Both the position numbers and the translations under genes were made by a program. Shown one piece after another: positions 4,277 to 20,000 of a stretch of 20,000 nucleotides of DNA. Origin of the DNA: an uncultured virus (IMG/VR IMGVR_UViG_3300017971_000213) (lineage: Duplodnaviria; Heunggongvirae; Uroviricota; Caudoviricetes). The stretch is from IMG/VR virus record IMGVR_UViG_3300017971_000213, positions 109,007 to 129,006 of that record. One strand, 5' to 3'. The notes beneath the pieces are model-generated. The model saw nothing but the letters and a program-made list of their open reading frames with translations. It had not been told where the DNA came from and made no database searches. How positions within the stretch are numbered: the first letter of the stretch is position 1; every line of letters begins with the position of its first letter.

Positions 4277-4570
4277 CTAGTCGCGATCCAAGATCTCGAC
4301 GATGCGGTCCGCAGGGACCTCCAAATGGTCTTTCTGGTAGCCCTCACAGAGCTTTCGAATCTGGTCGAGCTTCACCCTGATCCGGAACAACTCACCGGCC
4401 TGCACGCCATTGAACTGCTCGCGGGGGACGATGGCGTAACCGTCCAGGTGCGCCACCGCGACCTCGACCGGTTCCCGTGTCTCGGGATCGATCATCATGC
4501 AGCCCGTAAACAAGATCTCATCAGGCCTTCTTGCCGCGATGTGGCAGTTCACCACTCTAGACTTCCTCAC
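4277..4570 (-). CDS. Hypothetical phage protein
   Basis: GTGA overlap with upstream gene; fits tiling. Confidence 0.55.
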   Translation of the reverse strand: MRKSRVVNCHIAARRPDEILFTGCMMIDPETREPVEVAVAHLDGYAIVPREQFNGVQAGELFRIRVKLDQIRKLCEGYQKDHLEVPADRIVEILDRD

Positions 4571-5301
4571 GAGTTTCCCTCCTTGGCTGCTAGGAACCCT
4601 CGGGGGATAACGGGGTTCCGCATCTCGATCTCACCCACGCCTGCACACTTCGTGCACTTGTTATAGATCTTCCGGATGTCCTTCTTGGGGACTTCGACCG
4701 TACCGTGCCCGTCACAAGCGTTGCAGGTCTGCCCCACCTTGTCCGTGCCGGGGATGTACCTGGCCCGACGGAGAAAGTCGAAAGCAGACCGCGCGGAGTA
4801 CTGCTTCTTCTTCCTTGGGTAGAACCAACCGGTACCCTTGCAGAGATAGCACTCCCCGGAAACCTTACCCGTCTTGGGATGCTTGTACTTACCGTCACCG
4901 CCGCACTTGCGACACGGGTACCGTACGAGACCACCGCCTCCGCACTTCTCGCACGTGGCAGTCTCGTATCCGACGGTCTTCGTGAACTCCTGGTACCCCC
5001 GACCTTGGCAGGTCTCGCAGGTCCTGGCAGACGTCGTGAGAGGGTAGCCATGACCCAACTCCACCAGAGGTGTCCCATCGACGGTAGAAAGGGCCTTGTC
5101 GGTCCCGGAAGCCCCGGTAGCAGAGACATGCCCCTCTAGCGTAGAAAAGGCCGCCTGAAGCTCCTGAAAGGCCTCCCCTGAGCCTCCGGTGTCGGGATGG
5201 GCGAGCAGGGACTGCTTTCGGAAAGCCGACTTCAGCTCTGTGAAGGTGAACTTGGCGTCCACCGAGAAACCCAGCAATTCCCTGGCACGAAGCTCCTTCA
5301 C
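4567..5301 (-). CDS. DnaJ-like protein: J-domain plus six CxxCxGxG zinc-finger repeats
   Basis: J-domain ELKSAFRKQSLLAHPDTGG..EAFQELQAAF with HPD. Repeats CETCQGRG, CEKCGGGG, CRKCGGDG, CYLCKGTG, CNACDGHG, CTKCAGVG. No C-terminal substrate-binding domain. Confidence 0.85.
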   Translation of the reverse strand: MKELRARELLGFSVDAKFTFTELKSAFRKQSLLAHPDTGGSGEAFQELQAAFSTLEGHVSATGASGTDKALSTVDGTPLVELGHGYPLTTSARTCETCQGRGYQEFTKTVGYETATCEKCGGGGLVRYPCRKCGGDGKYKHPKTGKVSGECYLCKGTGWFYPRKKKQYSARSAFDFLRRARYIPGTDKVGQTCNACDGHGTVEVPKKDIRKIYNKCTKCAGVGEIEMRNPVIPRGFLAAKEGNS

Positions 5302-8208: not shown

Positions 8209-8713
8209 CGTCTCCCTCCACGGCTAGGATTTCGTCCATCCTCTGAGTGCCGATGGCCTCTCTGATCTTGGCCAAGTCGGTTTCCATGCGCTGGCACTGC
8301 TCGGACAGTCGATCCCTCTCGTCCCCCAGCTCCGCCCGCACCTCAAGCCCGCGAGTGACATCTCCTCGGAGCTGATTGTTCAGCCTCTTGGCCTCCTTCA
8401 ATAGCTCCTGGGTATCCCTGACCTCCAGACGAGCCTTCTGGGCTACCTCCTTGGCTTTCTCGGCATCTTCGTTCGCCCACTTGACCGCAGCGTCCTCGTT
8501 GAGTCGCATAAGGAATCGTGTAGATGTCGAAGGCACCATCTCGTCTCGGTAAACGGGATTCCCGTACTGGTCCTGGTTCCCGCTCTGGCAAGACTGCATA
8601 CGAGACTCCTGCTCTTGATACACCCCCACGATCTCGTACCCGCAGAGAGACAGCGCGTGAACTTTCTCCTCCTCGACGACCTGAACCTCTCCCGTCAATT
8701 CCATCTTGATCAT
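8201..8713 (-). CDS. Coiled-coil hypothetical protein
   Basis: ATGA overlap; heptad-rich C-terminal half. Confidence 0.6.
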   Translation of the reverse strand: MIKMELTGEVQVVEEEKVHALSLCGYEIVGVYQEQESRMQSCQSGNQDQYGNPVYRDEMVPSTSTRFLMRLNEDAAVKWANEDAEKAKEVAQKARLEVRDTQELLKEAKRLNNQLRGDVTRGLEVRAELGDERDRLSEQCQRMETDLAKIREAIGTQRMDEILAVEGDDV

Positions 8714-9153
8714 TTTCCGTCCTCCTTTTCGTGGAGTTCCTCCCGCAGCTGGATCAACTCTGCCAGCACGGGGTCATCGGGCTCTTCGTACTTCTCAGGT
8801 TCCACGGTCTTGGCCCCTTTGTAGAGGTTGCATTGAGGACACGCCAACTGGAGGTTGGTGAGGTCAAACTCAGCACCTCCCTTGGAGAGAGGTACGATGT
8901 GGTCGACATGGAACTTCTGGTGTCGCCGGATGCGCGAGCCGCAAATCATACAGATACCCCCATCGCGCTCGTAGACGACCCTGCGAACCCTCTTCCAGTC
9001 CGTCCCCATGAAGAAGTCGCGCAGACACTCCCGGCCGCAGAACGACGTTCTCCTGCCGCTCAGGGTCTTCCCGCATACCCTACAAAGACGTCGCCCCTGC
9101 GCGTCCTTACGGTACGGGAACAGCTTCGCATTGCTGTGAACGAGTCGACTCAT
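8710..9153 (-). CDS. HNH endonuclease with N-terminal zinc finger
   Basis: Start revised to ATG 9153. CRVCG...FCGREC, then RDGGICMICG...VDHIVPLSKGG....TNLQLACPQCNLYK. Confidence 0.9.
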   Translation of the reverse strand: MSRLVHSNAKLFPYRKDAQGRRLCRVCGKTLSGRRTSFCGRECLRDFFMGTDWKRVRRVVYERDGGICMICGSRIRRHQKFHVDHIVPLSKGGAEFDLTNLQLACPQCNLYKGAKTVEPEKYEEPDDPVLAELIQLREELHEKEDGK

Positions 9154-9386
9154 TCCGAAAACCCAGCAACCAACGGGAACACCTTGTCGAAGCACTCTCG
9201 GGCATCGACGTACTGCTCCGGACGAACCCTCTTCGGGGTATCCATGAACTCTTCTACGTTCGCGGTGATGCCGAGGTTGACCAGCTCGTCGAAGCACTCG
9301 CAGCAGATGTACCCAAGCCGGTTCGAGTAGCGATCACACATCACGTTGTCGCAACCTGTCCTGTCGCACGCCATCACTCCCATCAT
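9150..9386 (-). CDS. Conserved phage Cys-rich protein
   Basis: MGVMACDRTGCDNVMCDRYS...GYICCECFDEL; ATGA overlap, GAGG SD. Confidence 0.65.
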   Translation of the reverse strand: MMGVMACDRTGCDNVMCDRYSNRLGYICCECFDELVNLGITANVEEFMDTPKRVRPEQYVDARECFDKVFPLVAGFSE

Positions 9387-9664
9387 GCACCTCTCTGAAG
9401 GGGGATCACGGAAAACTTGCACGGAGTCCCGTCGGTCAACCTCTTGATCCGAATCGCCCGTTTGTCTCTCGAAGGACCCAGCTCGATGTACCCAAAACGC
9501 ACTAGCTCGTCGAGATGGTCCTTCACCGTACCTACGTTCCGCAACTGTAGCAGATCTGCGAGCCGGCGGCGCGTCGGAGGATAGCCCATGCGGTCGATAT
9601 AGGAAATCACCGTCTCCAGCACTTCGAGCTGACGGGTGGTCGGTTTTGTACTCTTGAGGGCCAT
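9383..9664 (-). CDS. LexA-like N-terminal winged-helix DNA-binding protein lacking the S24 peptidase domain
   Basis: T.RQLEVL..I...I...GYPPT.R.LA..L......TV..HL..L...GYI.......RAI; only 93 aa. Confidence 0.85.
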   Translation of the reverse strand: MALKSTKPTTRQLEVLETVISYIDRMGYPPTRRRLADLLQLRNVGTVKDHLDELVRFGYIELGPSRDKRAIRIKRLTDGTPCKFSVIPLQRGA

Positions 9665-14541: not shown

Positions 14542-15166
14542 CGTCTTGCTCCTCGGGCGCGGGGGTGGTGAGGATGCAGCCTAATTCTAACCAATCTTGT
14601 TGTGTCAAGCCCCCGTAAACCAGTGGGCTGCGTTTCTTCTTCCACTCCCTCACCGCCTCCAGCTTCGCCTCTGCTCTCTCGGTGCGCGCGCGGAGTCGTA
14701 CATTTTCGTCAAACATCCTGGTGTAGTCGTCCTCCCAGCACTCGCACGAATAGGCCAGGTCATCGCATGCTTCCCGTGCCTCGTCTCGCTCGCGCTCGGC
14801 TTTTAAGGCACGTTCGCGCATAGTGTCCAACGCATCTTCTTTTGTCACATGGTATGACATCTCAGTCCTCCTCGGGCACGTCGAGCGCAAGAAATGCAAC
14901 TGCCCAATCTCCCGGTCCCGCTCCTCGATCACGCGCGCATCAGCAGCCCTCACTGCTGCCACGGCATCGGCCAGAGACAGGTGCTCGTGATCGCGCCCGA
15001 TACTCTCGGAGTATACGCGAGCTATCTCCCGGTCCCGCTCCTCTACGGCAGCGAGGGCGCGGAGTATGTCTTCATTCGTCCACTCGCAACAATCGTCTGG
15101 CTCCTCTGTAGCGTACTGCCGGTACTCTACGATCTCCTCCGCCGTCAGCGGCTTGTATTCAGTCAT
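14531..15166 (-). CDS. Coiled-coil phage protein, probably chimeric (internal SD-ATG at 14860)
   Basis: Start revised to ATG 15166. A 20-bp direct repeat (14907-14926, 15024-15043) encodes EERDREI twice. Contains an internal GGAGGACTGAGATG. Confidence 0.6.
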   Translation of the reverse strand: MTEYKPLTAEEIVEYRQYATEEPDDCCEWTNEDILRALAAVEERDREIARVYSESIGRDHEHLSLADAVAAVRAADARVIEERDREIGQLHFLRSTCPRRTEMSYHVTKEDALDTMRERALKAERERDEAREACDDLAYSCECWEDDYTRMFDENVRLRARTERAEAKLEAVREWKKKRSPLVYGGLTQQDWLELGCILTTPAPEEQDDER

Positions 15167-15390
15167 CGCGCATCCCCACACTTCCGCATCTCCCGATGCC
15201 CCTGCACCCACTCCTGGAGAGTCTTCTCACGGTACTTGCCGTGGTACTGTGCAAACCACAGCGCCACCTCTTCTAGAGTGACACGACGTTCGACCTCGGG
15301 ACCGAGACGAAGCAGCTCTCCCTCAATGGACTCGATGACATCTGCGGGAGCGTTTTCCGTCATCCACATCAGCGCGTTGCTTAGATCCAT
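15163..15390 (-). CDS. Hypothetical phage protein
   Basis: GAGGAG SD; ATGA overlap with the next gene. Confidence 0.55.
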   Translation of the reverse strand: MDLSNALMWMTENAPADVIESIEGELLRLGPEVERRVTLEEVALWFAQYHGKYREKTLQEWVQGHREMRKCGDAR

Positions 15391-15652
15391 CTCGGTTCTC
15401 CTCGTCTACGGCGACAATCACCCCCACCCACTCATTGGGGTAGTTGAAACGCAGATCACGAACGTTTCCAATGAGCACTCCGTCAACTGACGCGCTGCCG
15501 TCGTCCTTCCCTGAAAAAGAAATCCCCACCTTGAGTGGACCGTGACTGCGAAAGTCGTCCCTACTGTGATAGGTGTGACGGTTGGCGTAGGTCACGACAG
15601 GCAGCTCGGGGTCCACCTGCCTGAGCACCTCAATCAGTTCCTTGACCTTCAT
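15323..15652 (-). CDS. Hypothetical phage protein (MKVKELIE.L...DPELPV N-terminus)
   Basis: Start revised to ATG 15652; common phage small-protein N-terminus. Confidence 0.65.
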   Translation of the reverse strand: MKVKELIEVLRQVDPELPVVTYANRHTYHSRDDFRSHGPLKVGISFSGKDDGSASVDGVLIGNVRDLRFNYPNEWVGVIVAVDEENRDGSKQRADVDDGKRSRRCHRVH

Positions 15653-15653
15653 C

Positions 15654-16124
15654 TCAGCCCTCCTCGCTCGTGGCCAGTGCGTAGACCATCTCGGGCACGG
15701 TACACTTCTCCTCCGAAGGCCAAGGCCACTCGGCCTTCTTGAAGCACTCGGGACAGATACGATGGCCAGACTGAACACCGTCGGCGGCCTTCGCCATGCG
15801 ACCACACCTCGAACAAACCCAAAGAGGTCCTCCGAGCAACTTCGACAATCGCTCCAGGGTATCTTGGTTCAGAACGCTGAAGCGGCTCTCGTGTTCGAGT
15901 ATATTCTGACGCTCTGTGAGGCCCTGCACCATCCGTTCCAGCGCCCGCCTCTCCTGTGAGGCCTGCTGGTGCATATCTCGGAGAGTCAGGCAGCGGGCCT
16001 GGAGATTGGCAACACTCAGCTTCAAGCCCTCGCGGTCTTTGATCGTCGCGCGCAGCGCCGCCGACATTGCATCGATCTCATCGAGGATCTCAGCCTTGGT
16101 CCGTCTGTCCTTCGCATCACCCAT
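15654..16124 (-). CDS. Coiled-coil plus zinc-ribbon hypothetical protein
   Basis: CSRCG...ICPECF; GGAGGACTGAGATG junction. Confidence 0.65.
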   Translation of the reverse strand: MGDAKDRRTKAEILDEIDAMSAALRATIKDREGLKLSVANLQARCLTLRDMHQQASQERRALERMVQGLTERQNILEHESRFSVLNQDTLERLSKLLGGPLWVCSRCGRMAKAADGVQSGHRICPECFKKAEWPWPSEEKCTVPEMVYALATSEEG

Positions 16125-16125
16125 C

Positions 16126-16188
16126 TCAGTCCTCCTTCTTCATCCGCAGCAGATCCGTACCGCCACCGGAAAACCGAACATTGCCCAT
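16126..16188 (-). CDS. 20-aa micro-ORF coupled to the downstream gene
   Basis: GGAGG SD, MGNVRFSGGGTDLLRMKKED*, stop within TGA-G-ATG; first ORF after the promoter. Confidence 0.4.
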   Translation of the reverse strand: MGNVRFSGGGTDLLRMKKED

Positions 16189-16228
16189 CGTTTCGATCCT
16201 CCGTACCAGATCACGTACGACCCTCTAT

Positions 16229-16258
16229 GCTATATCATAGGTCCAAGGTTCCTGTCAA
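16229..16258 (-). promoter_or_regulatory. Sigma70-like promoter (TTGACA-N18-TATAGC) just beyond the array trailer
   Basis: Shares CCTATGATATAGC with the 7774-7802 promoter. Confidence 0.75.
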
Positions 16259-16296
16259 GCAGAAATCTTCTCACTGTCACAGACCATTCCACTACC

Positions 16297-17547
16297 GTCG
16301 AGACTTCTAAACCGTCTCACAGACATCGAGGGGATCGGCCAGTCGAGACTTCTAAACCGTCTCGCAGGTATTGTAAGCTGAGGCGATGAACCGTATTGCC
16401 AACACGGCCCGACAGTCGAGACTTCTAAACCGTCTCGCAGGTATTGGAAGCCCGCGAGAGTGAGCGCGTCTCCAGATGAGGCCAAGACGTCGAGACTTCT
16501 AAACCGTCTCGCAGGTATTGGAAGGGCCTCATGGTAGAGGATGTTGTCGGCGCGGTTGGGGGTCGAGACTTCTAAACCGTCTCGCAGGTATTGTAAGAAG
16601 AGCAACGGGCGAAGTGAGGGTACCAAGCACTTTGCGTCGAGACTTCTAAACCGTCTCGCAGGTATTGGAAGGGCGATCCCGAAAAAGATCGCGGCTTGGC
16701 CTCTCAGTCGAGACTTCTAAACCGTCTCGCAGGTATTGTAAGAACTGCGTGTTCGGGCTCCAGCTCAACCCGGCCTCTCAGTCGAGACTTCTAAACCGTC
16801 TCGCAGGTATTGTAAGCTCCGCGCGACGGAAGGGTAACGTCTACATCACCACGTCGAGACTTCTAAACCGTCTCGCAGGTATTGTAAGAGTGGACTGGCA
16901 ACCACTCCAACGGAGAGTGGCGTCCGTCGAGACCTCTAAACCGTCTCGCAGGTATTGTAAACAAGGGACGGTGCGCGCCCTGGGCCAGGCCTCCGGGATG
17001 TCGAGACTTCTAAACCGTCTCGCAGGTATTGGAGGACCCCAACCGGGGAAAGCACAGTAGAAAAGGAATGTCGAGACTTCTAAACCGTCTCGCAGGTATT
17101 GTAAGTCGGGTACCAGCCGAGAAGGTGTGTACCTCTACCATCGTCGAGACCTCTAAACCGTCTCGCAGGTATTGGAAGGGTCGGGTTGCGCGGTGGTCGG
17201 GATTCGACACCTCGGGTCGAGACTTCTAAACCGTCTCGCAGGTATTGGAAGCTGGTGACGCAGGTCCGGGATGGGGCGTTCTGCAAGCTGTCGAGACTTC
17301 TAAACCGTCTCGCAGGTATTGGAAAAAGAGCAACGGGCGAAGTGAGGGTACCAAGCACTTTGCGTCGAGACTTCTAAACCGTCTCGCAGGTATTGGAAGA
17401 CGGAATGCGGCGTGAAGCTGGTGGAGCATCCGGGTGTCGAGACTTCTAAACCGTCTCGCAGGTATTGTAAGCAGGATTTCTCGGTCGAGCGTGCTGAGGT
17501 TGGCCATCTTCGTCGAGACTTCTAAACCGTCTCGCAGGTATTGTAAG
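16297..17547 (-). CRISPR. Type V CRISPR array: 17 full 36-nt repeats plus one partial trailer repeat; 16 spacers of 34-40 nt and one of about 23 nt
   Basis: Minus-strand repeat CTT(A/C)CAATACCTGCGAGACGGTTTAGAAGTCTCGAC with a 3' hairpin CGAGAC/GTCTCG followed by AC. Full repeats start (+ coordinates) at 16342, 16415, 16489, 16562, 16636, 16707, 16781, 16853, 16926, 17000, 17070, 17143, 17216, 17290, 17364, 17436, 17512; partial at 16297. Orientation is inferred from the cas gene, leader and degenerate end. Confidence 0.97.
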
Positions 17548-17713
17548 GGCGCTTCGCCAGATCACAACAATTTCAGCAAGTTTGCTCTATGATTTCGAGC
17601 GGTCCACCACGACTGCCGTCGCGCCCAGAATTTCTTCAATGGTTTCGAGCACCAGGCCTCACCACGACCACAGCGCTCGCCAAATTGTCAAAGAACCAAC
17701 CGACCCGAACCGC
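17548..17713 (-). promoter_or_regulatory. CRISPR leader with boxA-like motif
   Basis: 166-nt gap between the cas stop and the first repeat. GTTCTTTGACAA at 17685-17696; duplicated motifs 50-55 bp apart. Confidence 0.7.
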
Positions 17714-19642
17714 TCACACCGAGGGCTGCGCAGCCTCCTGGGACTTACGCTGCTGAACGATCTTCTTCCCCTTCTTGCGCCCTTTCTGACGTCTCGACAT
17801 CTTCGGCTCGACAGGCACGCTCCCGTCGATCATCTTGAGGGTCTCGTCGTTCCTGTACAGACGCATGATGTTCCGTGCGGCATTCGCATCCTGGTCCCAC
17901 TTCGCACCGCACTCCACGCAGACATGATCGACCTCAGGAATAGCATCCCAGGGCTCCAGGCAACCGCACTCGAAGCACCGCTGGGTGGTCATGCGGGCAT
18001 CGACCCAAACCACGGTCCCTCCGCGCGCGAGGAACGCCTGGACGAACATCATCCGCAGCTCGTAGCATGCGGCCTCTTTCTGCTGGTTGCGCGCGGCCTG
18101 GATCTCCACCTTCTCGCTCTCAGGGGGCTCGTGCTTCTGCGTCTCGGTGAGCTTGAAATCCTCGATCACCAGCACCTTGTACTTCCGGGCCAGCTTGGCC
18201 GCCACCCTCCGGTAGTGGTCCTTACGGCGCCTGAGAGACTTCTGCTCCTGGCTCTCCTTCCACTGCCATAGGTGTCGGTCGCCTCCGTCCCTGCGGCCCA
18301 GGGACTCCTCGTAGGTCCCACTCAGCCAGTCCTTCAGGATCTGGAAGCCCTCTCCGTCTCCATCCCATCTCTTCTCCCCCCACTTGCGGAGGAGCCCAGC
18401 GTAGCGCTTCGGTGACTTCCACGAATGCAGGTATCGCACATCCTCACGGAACCACTCGGGCAGATTCTTCTTGTTCGACTTGATCCACCCCTTGAGACTC
18501 TTCTGCATCTCGTTCTGGTTCAAGGCCCGGATCGACTGAAGACTCTCCACCTTGTCGAACCCCCGGACCACCTCGGGCTCCATGAGCAGCTCGTCTCCGC
18601 GACCCAGCGGGTCCTGGCGGTCTCTCAAGTACGCCGCGTACTCATCCCCGTCCACCAGGTACGCCACCCTGATCTGATCCTCTCCGCGCTTTCTCCAACC
18701 GATGTCGACAGCCACTGCCCCACGTCCACTCCCGAACTCCTCGTGCTGGTACTCAGCAGGGAGGCCCAGGCTGAAGTGCACCGTCCACCGAGGACGATCA
18801 GAGATCATACGCCGCTTCACGACGGCCCACTTGATCCGCACCCCCTGGGGCAGCGGACGGTGCATGATGATAGGGAACTCCGCCCAAACAGGACCTCTGC
18901 TCTTCGTACTCCCCACTCGGAGCCGCATCACCCCACGACGCTTCTTGCGCCGCGTCTTCGACACCACCCCCTCGGGTGGCGGCTCCATGTCTACCTGGAG
19001 GAACGTATCCTCCCCTGAGAAGATCTTCTCCACGGGGTGCTTGTCCCCTTGAAGCTGTACGGCAACCGTACCGTCACCCCTCCACTGGAGAAACTTCGGG
19101 TCGAGAGGTTGTCCGTGCTCGTCCCACATCTTCAGATCTCTCCGCGAATCCTCCATCGCGTTGTCCACCTGAAGGTAGGTTCCCCAGAACAAACCCTCCC
19201 GGCTGAACCCCTGCTGGGCCGCCTGGGACTTTTCCGAAGCTGTCAGGTTCGCCTCGCTCAACCTCTTCTGCAACTCCTCGTCGAGCTTCAACTCCTTCCG
19301 AGCCTCGCTCAACCTCTTCGCCACCTCCTGGGCCGCCTTGCGCGCTTCCTTGACGCGGGCTCGCTGCTCGGCCGTGTCTGAACGCGATCTCGTCTTCGCC
19401 CTCTGACGTTTGAGGTCCTCTGTGGCGCGCTTCAACTCGCTCTTCGCCACCTTGTCCTCTTCGACCAACCCCTCCAAGGCCAGATCACGTTCATCGTAGA
19501 CCTCTCTTACCTTTTCTCTCCGCTCACGCTCGATCTCGATGAGCGCGTTCCGGTACTTATGCGCCAACCTCATCTGCTCCTCCACGAGATCAGCATTGAC
19601 CGTCGGTCCCAGCGGCAACCCGTACACATACGTCTTCGTCAT
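17714..19642 (-). CDS. cas12m: Compact type V CRISPR effector, Cas12m (V-U1/V-M)-like, 642 aa
   Basis: RuvC-I AVAVD313IGWR, RuvC-II LVIE494DF, RuvC-III WDQD585ANAA and zinc ribbon C556/C559/C575/C578. Blocks recalled from Cas12m: QMRLAHKYRN.L..IE, long N-terminal coiled coil, LFWGTY..V, W.GDGTVAVQLQ, MHRPLP, W.SP.R...L, R.D.YR.VAA. Adjacent to the array; GAGGAGG SD. Confidence 0.85.
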   Translation of the reverse strand: MTKTYVYGLPLGPTVNADLVEEQMRLAHKYRNALIEIERERREKVREVYDERDLALEGLVEEDKVAKSELKRATEDLKRQRAKTRSRSDTAEQRARVKEARKAAQEVAKRLSEARKELKLDEELQKRLSEANLTASEKSQAAQQGFSREGLFWGTYLQVDNAMEDSRRDLKMWDEHGQPLDPKFLQWRGDGTVAVQLQGDKHPVEKIFSGEDTFLQVDMEPPPEGVVSKTRRKKRRGVMRLRVGSTKSRGPVWAEFPIIMHRPLPQGVRIKWAVVKRRMISDRPRWTVHFSLGLPAEYQHEEFGSGRGAVAVDIGWRKRGEDQIRVAYLVDGDEYAAYLRDRQDPLGRGDELLMEPEVVRGFDKVESLQSIRALNQNEMQKSLKGWIKSNKKNLPEWFREDVRYLHSWKSPKRYAGLLRKWGEKRWDGDGEGFQILKDWLSGTYEESLGRRDGGDRHLWQWKESQEQKSLRRRKDHYRRVAAKLARKYKVLVIEDFKLTETQKHEPPESEKVEIQAARNQQKEAACYELRMMFVQAFLARGGTVVWVDARMTTQRCFECGCLEPWDAIPEVDHVCVECGAKWDQDANAARNIMRLYRNDETLKMIDGSVPVEPKMSRRQKGRKKGKKIVQQRKSQEAAQPSV

Positions 19643-19685
19643 CTCTTGCCCTCCTCGGCGTACCAGCCCTCATACCAACCTAGCC

Positions 19686-19715
19686 TATATAGCACAGAGA
19701 CACGGCCGCTGTCAA
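19686..19715 (-). promoter_or_regulatory. Promoter of the cas gene (TTGACA-N18-TATATA)
   Basis: Same architecture as the four other promoters; the -10 lies 43 nt upstream of the ATG. Confidence 0.8.
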
Positions 19716-19944: not shown

Positions 19945-20000
19945 CCATCAAGTACCCATCAAGTACCCATCAAGTACCCATCAAGTACCCATCAAGTACC
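19945..20000. repeat. 11-bp perfect tandem repeat (CCATCAAGTAC)n, at least 5 copies, running off the window
   Basis: Units start at 19945, 19956, 19967, 19978 and 19989. Confidence 0.95.

Follow-up and report, generated by a model that had tools for sequence, protein, structure and literature searches.

A phage-encoded type V-M CRISPR-Cas12m locus with a long array and a spacer nearly matching a gene of its own lineage

Introduction

What does a tailed phage do with a CRISPR effector and a long spacer array, without adaptation genes of its own, and against which targets is such an array directed? This question is raised by a locus near the end of the IMG/VR record IMGVR_UViG_3300017971_000213 (G000), a 129,006-bp contig with a CheckV completeness of 67%, whose last 20 kb (positions 109,007 to 129,006; 20,000 nt) were analyzed as a whole and are referred to as the window. 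On the minus strand, the window holds the gene of a 642-aa protein (P0001), followed by a leader and an array of direct repeats. The locus is a new, divergent Cas12m of an already known phage-borne kind. It probably represents a type V-M CRISPR-Cas12m system which silences competing elements, likely sibling phages, by DNA binding guided by CRISPR RNA (crRNA). A sequence-only reading of the window had listed a promoter, the 642-aa gene, a leader and an 18-repeat array in a common orientation, and all of these were found again, with the promoter being recovered by a custom motif:

19686-19715, minus strand: promoter-like motif upstream of cas12m, TTGACA-N18-TATATA with TG two bases before the -10 element (custom pattern)
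17714-19642, minus strand: cas12m gene (P0001), 642 aa, a single intact open reading frame (ORF)
17548-17713, minus strand: leader, 166 nt from the cas12m stop codon to the first repeat
16297-17547, minus strand: CRISPR array with 17 conserved 36-nt repeats, one degenerate terminal repeat and 16 full spacers
16297-16332, minus strand: degenerate terminal repeat, its 3' 22 nt and hairpin kept, its 5' half diverged
16229-16258, minus strand: following promoter-like motif, immediately after the array (custom pattern)

The effector is a full-length Cas12m

The assignment of the 642-aa protein to full-length Cas12m (type V-M) is firmly supported by sequence and predicted fold. Residues 11-595 match a PDB chain named Cas12m (23vw_A, chain 27-570 of 577) with E 3e-66, and further PDB sequence matches comprise Cas12m2 (8hhl, 7e-28), UnCas12m4a (23vu, 2.7e-20) and a Cas12m complex (8pm4, 3e-20). 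An AlphaFold2 model based on 40 relatives reached a mean predicted local distance difference test (pLDDT) value of 86.2 and a predicted template modeling (pTM) score of 0.74. In the Foldseek comparison of this model, Cas12m2 (8hhl, template modeling (TM) score 0.71/0.77) and GoCas12m (8pm4, TM 0.72/0.77) came first, followed by Cas12f and TnpB with about 0.35. This agrees with the bilobed Cas12m architecture (WED-REC-RuvC-ZnF). The Cas12m-like effector proposed by the sequence-only reading is thus confirmed by both the 23vw match and TM scores of 0.71-0.77; a grouping with TnpB or with CasPhi and CasLambda was not borne out. CasPhi (Cas12j) and CasLambda of huge phages resemble the present system in being compact single type V effectors with arrays and without adaptation genes. 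Both are active nucleases. They nevertheless belong to a different family, as their fold scores amount to only 0.29 (CasPhi, 7odf) and 0.30 (CasLambda, 8dc2) compared with 0.71-0.72 for Cas12m. Together with their absence among the 19 PDB sequence matches at E<=10, these scores speak against a membership in either group. Proteins of the TnpB type, encoded by IS200/IS605 insertion sequences (IS), share the RuvC and zinc-ribbon core, but work with an omega RNA in place of the CRISPR array found here, and no transposon ends were seen. An IS-associated TnpB is contradicted by this array and by the NCBIfam profile guided_TnpB, which covered only the C-terminal residues 468-594 with 47.9 bits against a cut-off of 100. 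Among the Pfam families, only the Cas12f1-like TNB zinc ribbon was recognized in P0001.

With MmCas12m2 (8hhl/8hio), GoCas12m (8pm4) and 23vw, the protein shares its full-length sequence and fold at a size of about 600 aa as well as a basic helical recognition (REC) insertion, the RuvC domain and the zinc ribbon. The RuvC triad is formed by D313, E494 and D585, and the zinc ribbon by four cysteines (C556, C559, C575 and C578). Across 40 aligned relatives, the three triad positions are conserved as D in 33, E in 38 and D in 39 sequences, with the remaining seven carrying N at the RuvC-I position. D-E-D is one of the triad types of the Cas12m family, besides H-D-D and N-D-D, and distinguishes the protein from GoCas12m and MmCas12m, both of which are reported to be of the H-D-D type. 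Residues 17-148 constitute the K/R-rich REC insertion (25% K+R) with predicted helices at 17-54, 57-84, 91-117 and 122-148. Matched by description and not residue by residue, these helices may correspond to the basic "Roof" of GoCas12m. The C-terminal tail (596-642) is basic, too, and the protein exceeds the 577-aa chain of 23vw by about 47 C-terminal residues.

Apart from a strain variant with 98% identity, the closest proteins found are at most 48% identical. None of these is a near-identical, already described effector. As a divergent, compact Cas12m of the D-E-D type, it may suit binding-based tools.

Array, repeats and flanking motifs

All 18 direct repeats of the array lie on the minus strand at a spacing of 70-76 nt. 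Seventeen of them are near-identical 36-mers, in which variation is confined to the first four bases. The degenerate terminal repeat follows only 9 nt after the preceding one and scores 18.6 bits in a covariance model, compared with 31-34 bits for the other repeats. The 16 full spacers measure 34-40 nt and comprise 15 unique sequences, due to the identity of S03 and S13. The three spacers that matter most in the following are located as given here:

17326-17363, minus strand: spacer S03, identical to S13
17252-17289, minus strand: spacer S04, 34/38 match to P0122, the phage's own gene in the complete genome G001
16598-16635, minus strand: spacer S13, identical to S03

In addition, the neighboring spacers S11 and S12 (window 16672-16780) have their first 9 nt (TGAGAGGCC) in common and diverge thereafter, which is unlikely to be due to chance.

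On the transcribed strand, the 3' part of the repeat folds into a hairpin of 6 bp with -8.7 kcal/mol, and the repeat terminates with the bases GAC. An alignment of the window repeat with single repeats of 32 related loci (33 rows, 37 columns, gap-free; arrays with a malformed consensus or one below 33 nt and repeats duplicating one already used were omitted) revealed this hairpin in columns 15-20/30-35 together with a crossing 3-bp helix in columns 10-12/21-23, i.e., a pseudoknot. Of the alignment cells in these two helices, 91.2% are able to pair, and all nine base pairs show compensatory changes. The covariation score was reached by none of 500 shuffles, while slid partners paired in 31-44% only. 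The repeat is thus of the V-M type, with the hairpin and pseudoknot of the Cas12m family. In this 36-nt repeat, in the lack of a candidate for a trans-activating crRNA (tracrRNA) and in the lack of an adaptation module, the locus agrees with other V-M systems. As the sequence-only reading had stated, no anti-repeat is present: between 14500 and 20000 of the window, the best candidate did not exceed 13 paired bases out of 14, with G-U pairs allowed, and by this computational test a tracrRNA candidate is absent. Likewise, no Rfam family reached its gathering score in the window, and no solitary repeats outside the array were detected by the covariance model in the 129-kb contig or in its complete twin described below.

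The custom pattern of the TTGACA-N18-TATATA type occurs seven times on the minus (coding) strand of the 129-kb contig and not once on the plus strand. The copy downstream of the array (16229-16258) probably starts the following operon. A combined promoter and terminator scan yielded nothing above shuffled sequences.

The carrier: a tailed phage lacking adaptation genes

A twin IMG/VR record (G001) comprises 192,260 bp with direct terminal repeats and is 100% complete according to CheckV. It encodes an identical Cas12m (100%) and carries the same 18 repeats and spacers. In a PHROGs scan of 80 ORFs of at least 120 aa, located outside the window on the same contig, matches to the terminase large subunit, the portal, a head protease, a baseplate wedge and two tail fibers were obtained, besides the replication proteins DNA polymerase, primase, helicases and clamp loader. 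Of the greedily called ORFs, 130 of 136 are on the minus strand. The phage-borne nature of the system, formerly proposed from the window, is hence substantiated by structural and packaging genes elsewhere on the contig and by the complete twin with its terminal repeats. At a threshold of E<=1, profiles of Cas1, Cas2 and Cas4 matched neither the 129-kb contig nor the 192-kb twin, with control genomes responding to the same profiles. Including the complete twin is important because, upstream of cas12m, the window contig continues for only about 360 nt. The absence of cas1, cas2 and cas4, which had been noticed for the window, is thereby extended to the whole contig and a complete genome. That the locus resides in a tailed phage of about 192 kb without these genes is firmly supported.

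Relatives and previously described phage-borne Cas12m

How unusual is such a locus? A scan of IMG/VR with a profile of 40 sequences returned 63 loci with relatives, which are 22-47% identical to the window protein apart from the twin; phage-borne Cas12m is thus common rather than rare, judged from a single scan. Another 13 relatives, at most 38% identical, were found on contigs of metagenome-assembled genomes (MAGs). An array of at least three repeats starts within 900 nt downstream in at least 42 of the 63 viral loci and in 9 of the 13 MAG loci. The former number is a lower bound because the array finder under-called heterogeneous arrays. Cas1 was found in none of the 50 other Cas12m-bearing viral records, 20 of which are at least 90% complete and 16 of which have terminal repeats. 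In a FastTree phylogeny of 189 rows, calculated after six short locus proteins and one 477-aa match had been left out, the window protein belongs to a well-supported set of 21 rows, together with two viral loci and 18 unlabeled metagenomic proteins. The 57 viral rows are scattered over the tree, with 34 changes being required for the viral label, and do not form one phage branch.

Only one of the 50 records (G002, 205.6 kb) features a terminase like that of the window phage (70% identity). Its Cas12m is 47% identical to the one studied here, and its array contains about 36 repeats, some being almost identical to those of the window. Spacers of G002 searched against G001 and vice versa gave no match beyond repeat-to-repeat. 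The G002 array (L008 7840-10160; G002:61,820-64,265) consists of at least two repeat sequence types with compensating stem changes, and one or two solitary repeat copies (G002:36925-36961 and G002:42900-42930) are situated 19-25 kb from it. Downstream of another Cas12m with 47% identity to the window protein, six degenerate repeat-like units occur at irregular distances of 49-322 nt and without a regular array (L092 246-1276; G003:8745-9775). Furthermore, a single 152.9-kb viral record of IMG/VR contains two Cas12m-like loci about 49 kb apart (L014 and L034).

Cas12m from viral sources has entered the literature before. Bigelyte et al. (2024; PMC11013384) searched nr, IMG/M and IMG/VR and list 134 variants; according to this paper, the tested Cas12m of the D-E-D, H-D-D and N-D-D types bind double-stranded DNA (dsDNA) dependent on a protospacer-adjacent motif (PAM) and show neither cutting nor collateral activity, the crRNA measures 50-60 nt, and a tracrRNA was not found. 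Among the eight proteins tested there, all of them described as lacking dsDNA cleavage, is UnCas12m, a D-E-D variant with an IMG/VR source identifier (Table S2). By its description, it resembles the window protein in its D-E-D triad and in its origin from a record classified as viral, but is shorter (583 vs. 642 aa). One supplementary text file of the same paper contains neither the identifier of the present record nor the string UViG. A review from 2024 mentions V-M systems as "also encoded by some prophages". Moreover, a bioRxiv preprint from September 2026 (10.64898/2026.09.14.751636) describes MvCas12m of the myxophage MV-1, a protein of 610 aa with the triad D305/E463/D555, and states it to be the first from a bacteriophage. 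According to the preprint, MvCas12m is accompanied by eight spacers, no cas1, cas2 or cas4, no tracrRNA and no confident protospacers. It corresponds to the window system in being phage-encoded, in the D-E-D triad, in the adjacent array and in the lack of adaptation genes and tracrRNA, and differs in size and array length (610 aa and 8 spacers vs. 642 aa and 16 spacers). One of the loci compared here (L079) encodes a protein of 610 aa with D305/E463/D555 next to nine repeats; it is 36% identical to the window protein, falls outside the 21-row clade and, by its fit to that description, is presumably MvCas12m.

Taken together, the suggestion of the sequence-only reading that the locus might be an undescribed phage-encoded branch did not hold, in view of the 63 IMG/VR loci, the scattered viral rows on the tree and the phage and prophage Cas12m already in print. 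Still, the carrier, a tailed phage of about 190 kb, differs from those of the characterized V-M systems, which are located on bacterial chromosomes or plasmids. The phage also has its own effector and a long array, in contrast to systems that rely on the effector of the host. What the locus adds is a long array that can be viewed within a complete genome, a spacer possibly directed against kin, with a seed mismatch in the resident copy, and a pair of strains with a block difference of the recombination type. This makes it possible to test both the targets of adaptation-less phage CRISPR systems and the way in which such arrays change.

Spacer S04 and a gene of the same phage lineage

Two features are new to this locus, the first being the near-match of a spacer to a gene of its own lineage. 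Within the 129-kb contig, no spacer match is longer than 15 nt. In the complete twin, 34 of the 38 positions of S04 agree with G001:162475-162512 (E 1.5e-9). Counted from the repeat, positions 3-30 (28 bases) are identical, and mismatches occur at position 2 and positions 31-33. The site lies on the coding strand inside P0122, a 126-aa gene whose start is about 235 nt away. P0122 shows a third-position GC content (GC3) of 0.85 and a phage promoter motif just upstream; neither the gene nor its neighbors belong to a Pfam or PHROG family. Among 50 records (G001 and 49 others), a homologue is present only in G002 (47% identity). S04 looks like an allele of P0122 taken from a sibling phage because the four nucleotide differences would result in only one amino-acid change (V69T). 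The near-match may hence point to kin-phage targeting, and one spacer directed to a gene of the own phage lineage would fit competition between related viruses.

According to a preprint, single mismatches up to 12 nt from the PAM abolished the activity of PmCas12m. Judged by this mismatch tolerance, the resident P0122 should escape owing to its mismatch at seed position 2. The flank of the site, 5'-TTCCGC, does not present an obvious T-rich PAM. A search of the array against the 50 other Cas12m-bearing viral records gave two short matches only, S04 in G028 (29/38; 14 of the first 20) and S01 in G044 (27/40; 8 of the first 20), and both were rejected as targets for being too poor; G028, moreover, has no homologue of P0122.

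A sibling strain with a shortened array

The second new feature is a sibling array that lacks exactly S04-S13. It is found on a 6.4-kb metagenome contig (L087), whose Cas12m differs from the window protein at 10 of 642 residues, with five substitutions each in the ranges 95-130 and 240-282. The order of spacers in this contig is S01, S02, S03, S14, S15, S16 and the 9-nt remnant. The missing block is bounded by the duplicated spacer S03/S13, and the repeat after S03 in L087 is the variant that follows S13 in the window array. Within the shared 1,150 coding nt (3' part of cas12m), the window and L087 differ at one position. Two differences were counted in the leader and the first three repeat-spacer units, both in the fourth repeat (17325-17290), and 48 in a stretch of 1,186 nt behind the array. 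This mosaic divergence over 15000-19642 of the window suggests that part of the locus may recently have been exchanged. The arrays fit two histories: S04-S13 were lost by recombination between the S03 and S13 duplicates, or the long array arose by unequal crossover of two sibling arrays, with the old spacers S13-S16 in common.

Mode of action and alternative explanations

By analogy to characterized Cas12m, the following mode of action would result. The cas12m gene and the array would be transcribed from a phage promoter of the sigma-70 type, and Cas12m itself would process the precursor crRNA to guides of about 50-60 nt without a tracrRNA. The complex would then bind PAM-flanked dsDNA without cutting and thereby block transcription or replication of the target, the most likely targets being competing elements, in particular sibling phages. 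The resident P0122 copy would spare the genome of the phage itself by its differences at seed position 2 and positions 31-33. New spacers might be obtained in trans via an adaptation module of the host, as supposed by the sequence-only reading, or else the arrays of different phages might recombine. The latter route is supported because the sibling array differs by a block bounded by a duplicated spacer.

Several results weigh against DNA-binding silencing of competing elements. A perfect-match protospacer was not found. The IMG/VR spacer scan covered four of the 15 unique spacers (S01-S04); exact 25-mers of S01, S02 and S03 matched nothing but the array of the phage itself, and for a 30-mer of S04, its position 2 set to N, the matches were confined to the array and the phage's own gene. 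In a metagenome collection, the S03 25-mer matched only the twin and the sibling strain L087. Searches of the GenBank phage and PLSDB plasmid collections with the complete array were negative. An allele of P0122 exactly corresponding to S04 was not seen in contigs of four runs (X4, X5, X7 and X8), of which those of X4 and X8 span the site with the sequence of G001, and those of X5 and X7 cover it only partly; it is likewise missing from the P0122 protein cluster, which has a single member. On the side of expression, promoter function can only be assumed, since a stricter sigma-70 scan flagged neither the motif at 19715 nor the one at 16258, the promoter thus being a custom motif. Finally, the D-E-D triad is canonical and conserved in relatives, so that nuclease activity is compatible with the sequence. 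For the use against competing mobile elements put forward by the sequence-only reading, this leaves a mixed outcome: the near-match of one spacer to a lineage-specific gene speaks for it, and the lack of a perfect target against it.

The silencing of competing elements can be extended to the lineage as a whole, which is tentative and rather doubtful at present. Phages of about 190-205 kb might keep long Cas12m arrays, with 17 to about 36 repeats, to fight siblings without cutting their DNA. A single seed mismatch in a lineage-specific gene might suffice to distinguish the resident genome from its kin, and the arrays might be diversified by recombination between co-infecting relatives and not by an adaptation module of their own.

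Among the alternatives, an effector that acts as an RNA-guided nuclease and cuts its targets like CasPhi, instead of silencing them by binding, survives best, although it is unlikely. It would agree with the canonical residues D313, E494 and D585, largely conserved among the 40 relatives, and with the preprint 10.64898/2026.09.14.751636, which suggests that the D-E-D protein MvCas12m may have nuclease activity. Nevertheless, the D-E-D Cas12m reported in PMC11013384 exhibited neither dsDNA cleavage nor collateral activity, and the predicted fold is nearest to the non-cutting Cas12m2 and GoCas12m, far above any cutting Cas12.

Less probable still is a regulation of the phage's own genes, in which the S04 crRNA would repress P0122 via partial complementarity. 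The 28 consecutive bases paired with P0122, about 235 nt after its start and close to the promoter motif, could be understood in this way. However, the mismatch concerns position 2 of the PAM-proximal seed, where PmCas12m is described as intolerant, no obvious T-rich PAM is provided by the flank 5'-TTCCGC, a self match occurs for only one of the 15 unique spacers, and S04 is missing from L087.

A decaying passenger, whose array is out of use or whose gene is kept for a function apart from CRISPR, would explain the lack of adaptation genes and of a perfect target as well as the degenerate terminal repeat, but is very improbable given the intact ORF, the 17 near-identical repeats, the promoter motif, the single difference to L087 in 1,150 coding nt compared with 48 in 1,186 nt following the array, and the related phage G002, which maintains Cas12m and an array of about 36 repeats.

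Neighboring genes and further sequence elements

Besides the Cas12m locus, the minus strand of the window comprises small genes with recognizable families at 1529-2311, 4567-5301, 8710-9297 and 9383-9664. They encode an ATP-grasp protein of the R2K type, a DnaJ-like protein in which CxxCxGxG repeats occur, an HNH endonuclease and a protein whose DNA-binding domain is of the LexA type. No family was recognized for most other ORFs of the window. About 0.9 kb before the window, 14 tRNA genes are clustered on the plus strand (L006 6727-8102; contig 106,727-108,102), i.e., opposite to nearly all protein genes, and a 250-aa ORF greedily called there is probably spurious.

Upstream of cas12m and on the opposite strand, an intergenic element of about 290 nt occurs three times (L007 691-980, 2690-2982 and 3873-4167; 60-87% alike), each copy with a promoter-like motif TTGAC-N-TGCTATACT. 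In the gap between cas12m and a divergently transcribed region, an 11-nt unit (GGTACTTGATG on the minus strand) is repeated about six times in tandem (window 19945-20000, also L007 5621-5708), with several GGTAGG-like motifs close by. The tandem is a probable assembly break point, as the 129-kb contig ends inside it, and could be a regulator or origin site. At the other end of the contig, positions 1 to about 126 consist of an 18-nt unit (GGAGCAGCGGCAGCCGGA) in about seven tandem copies.

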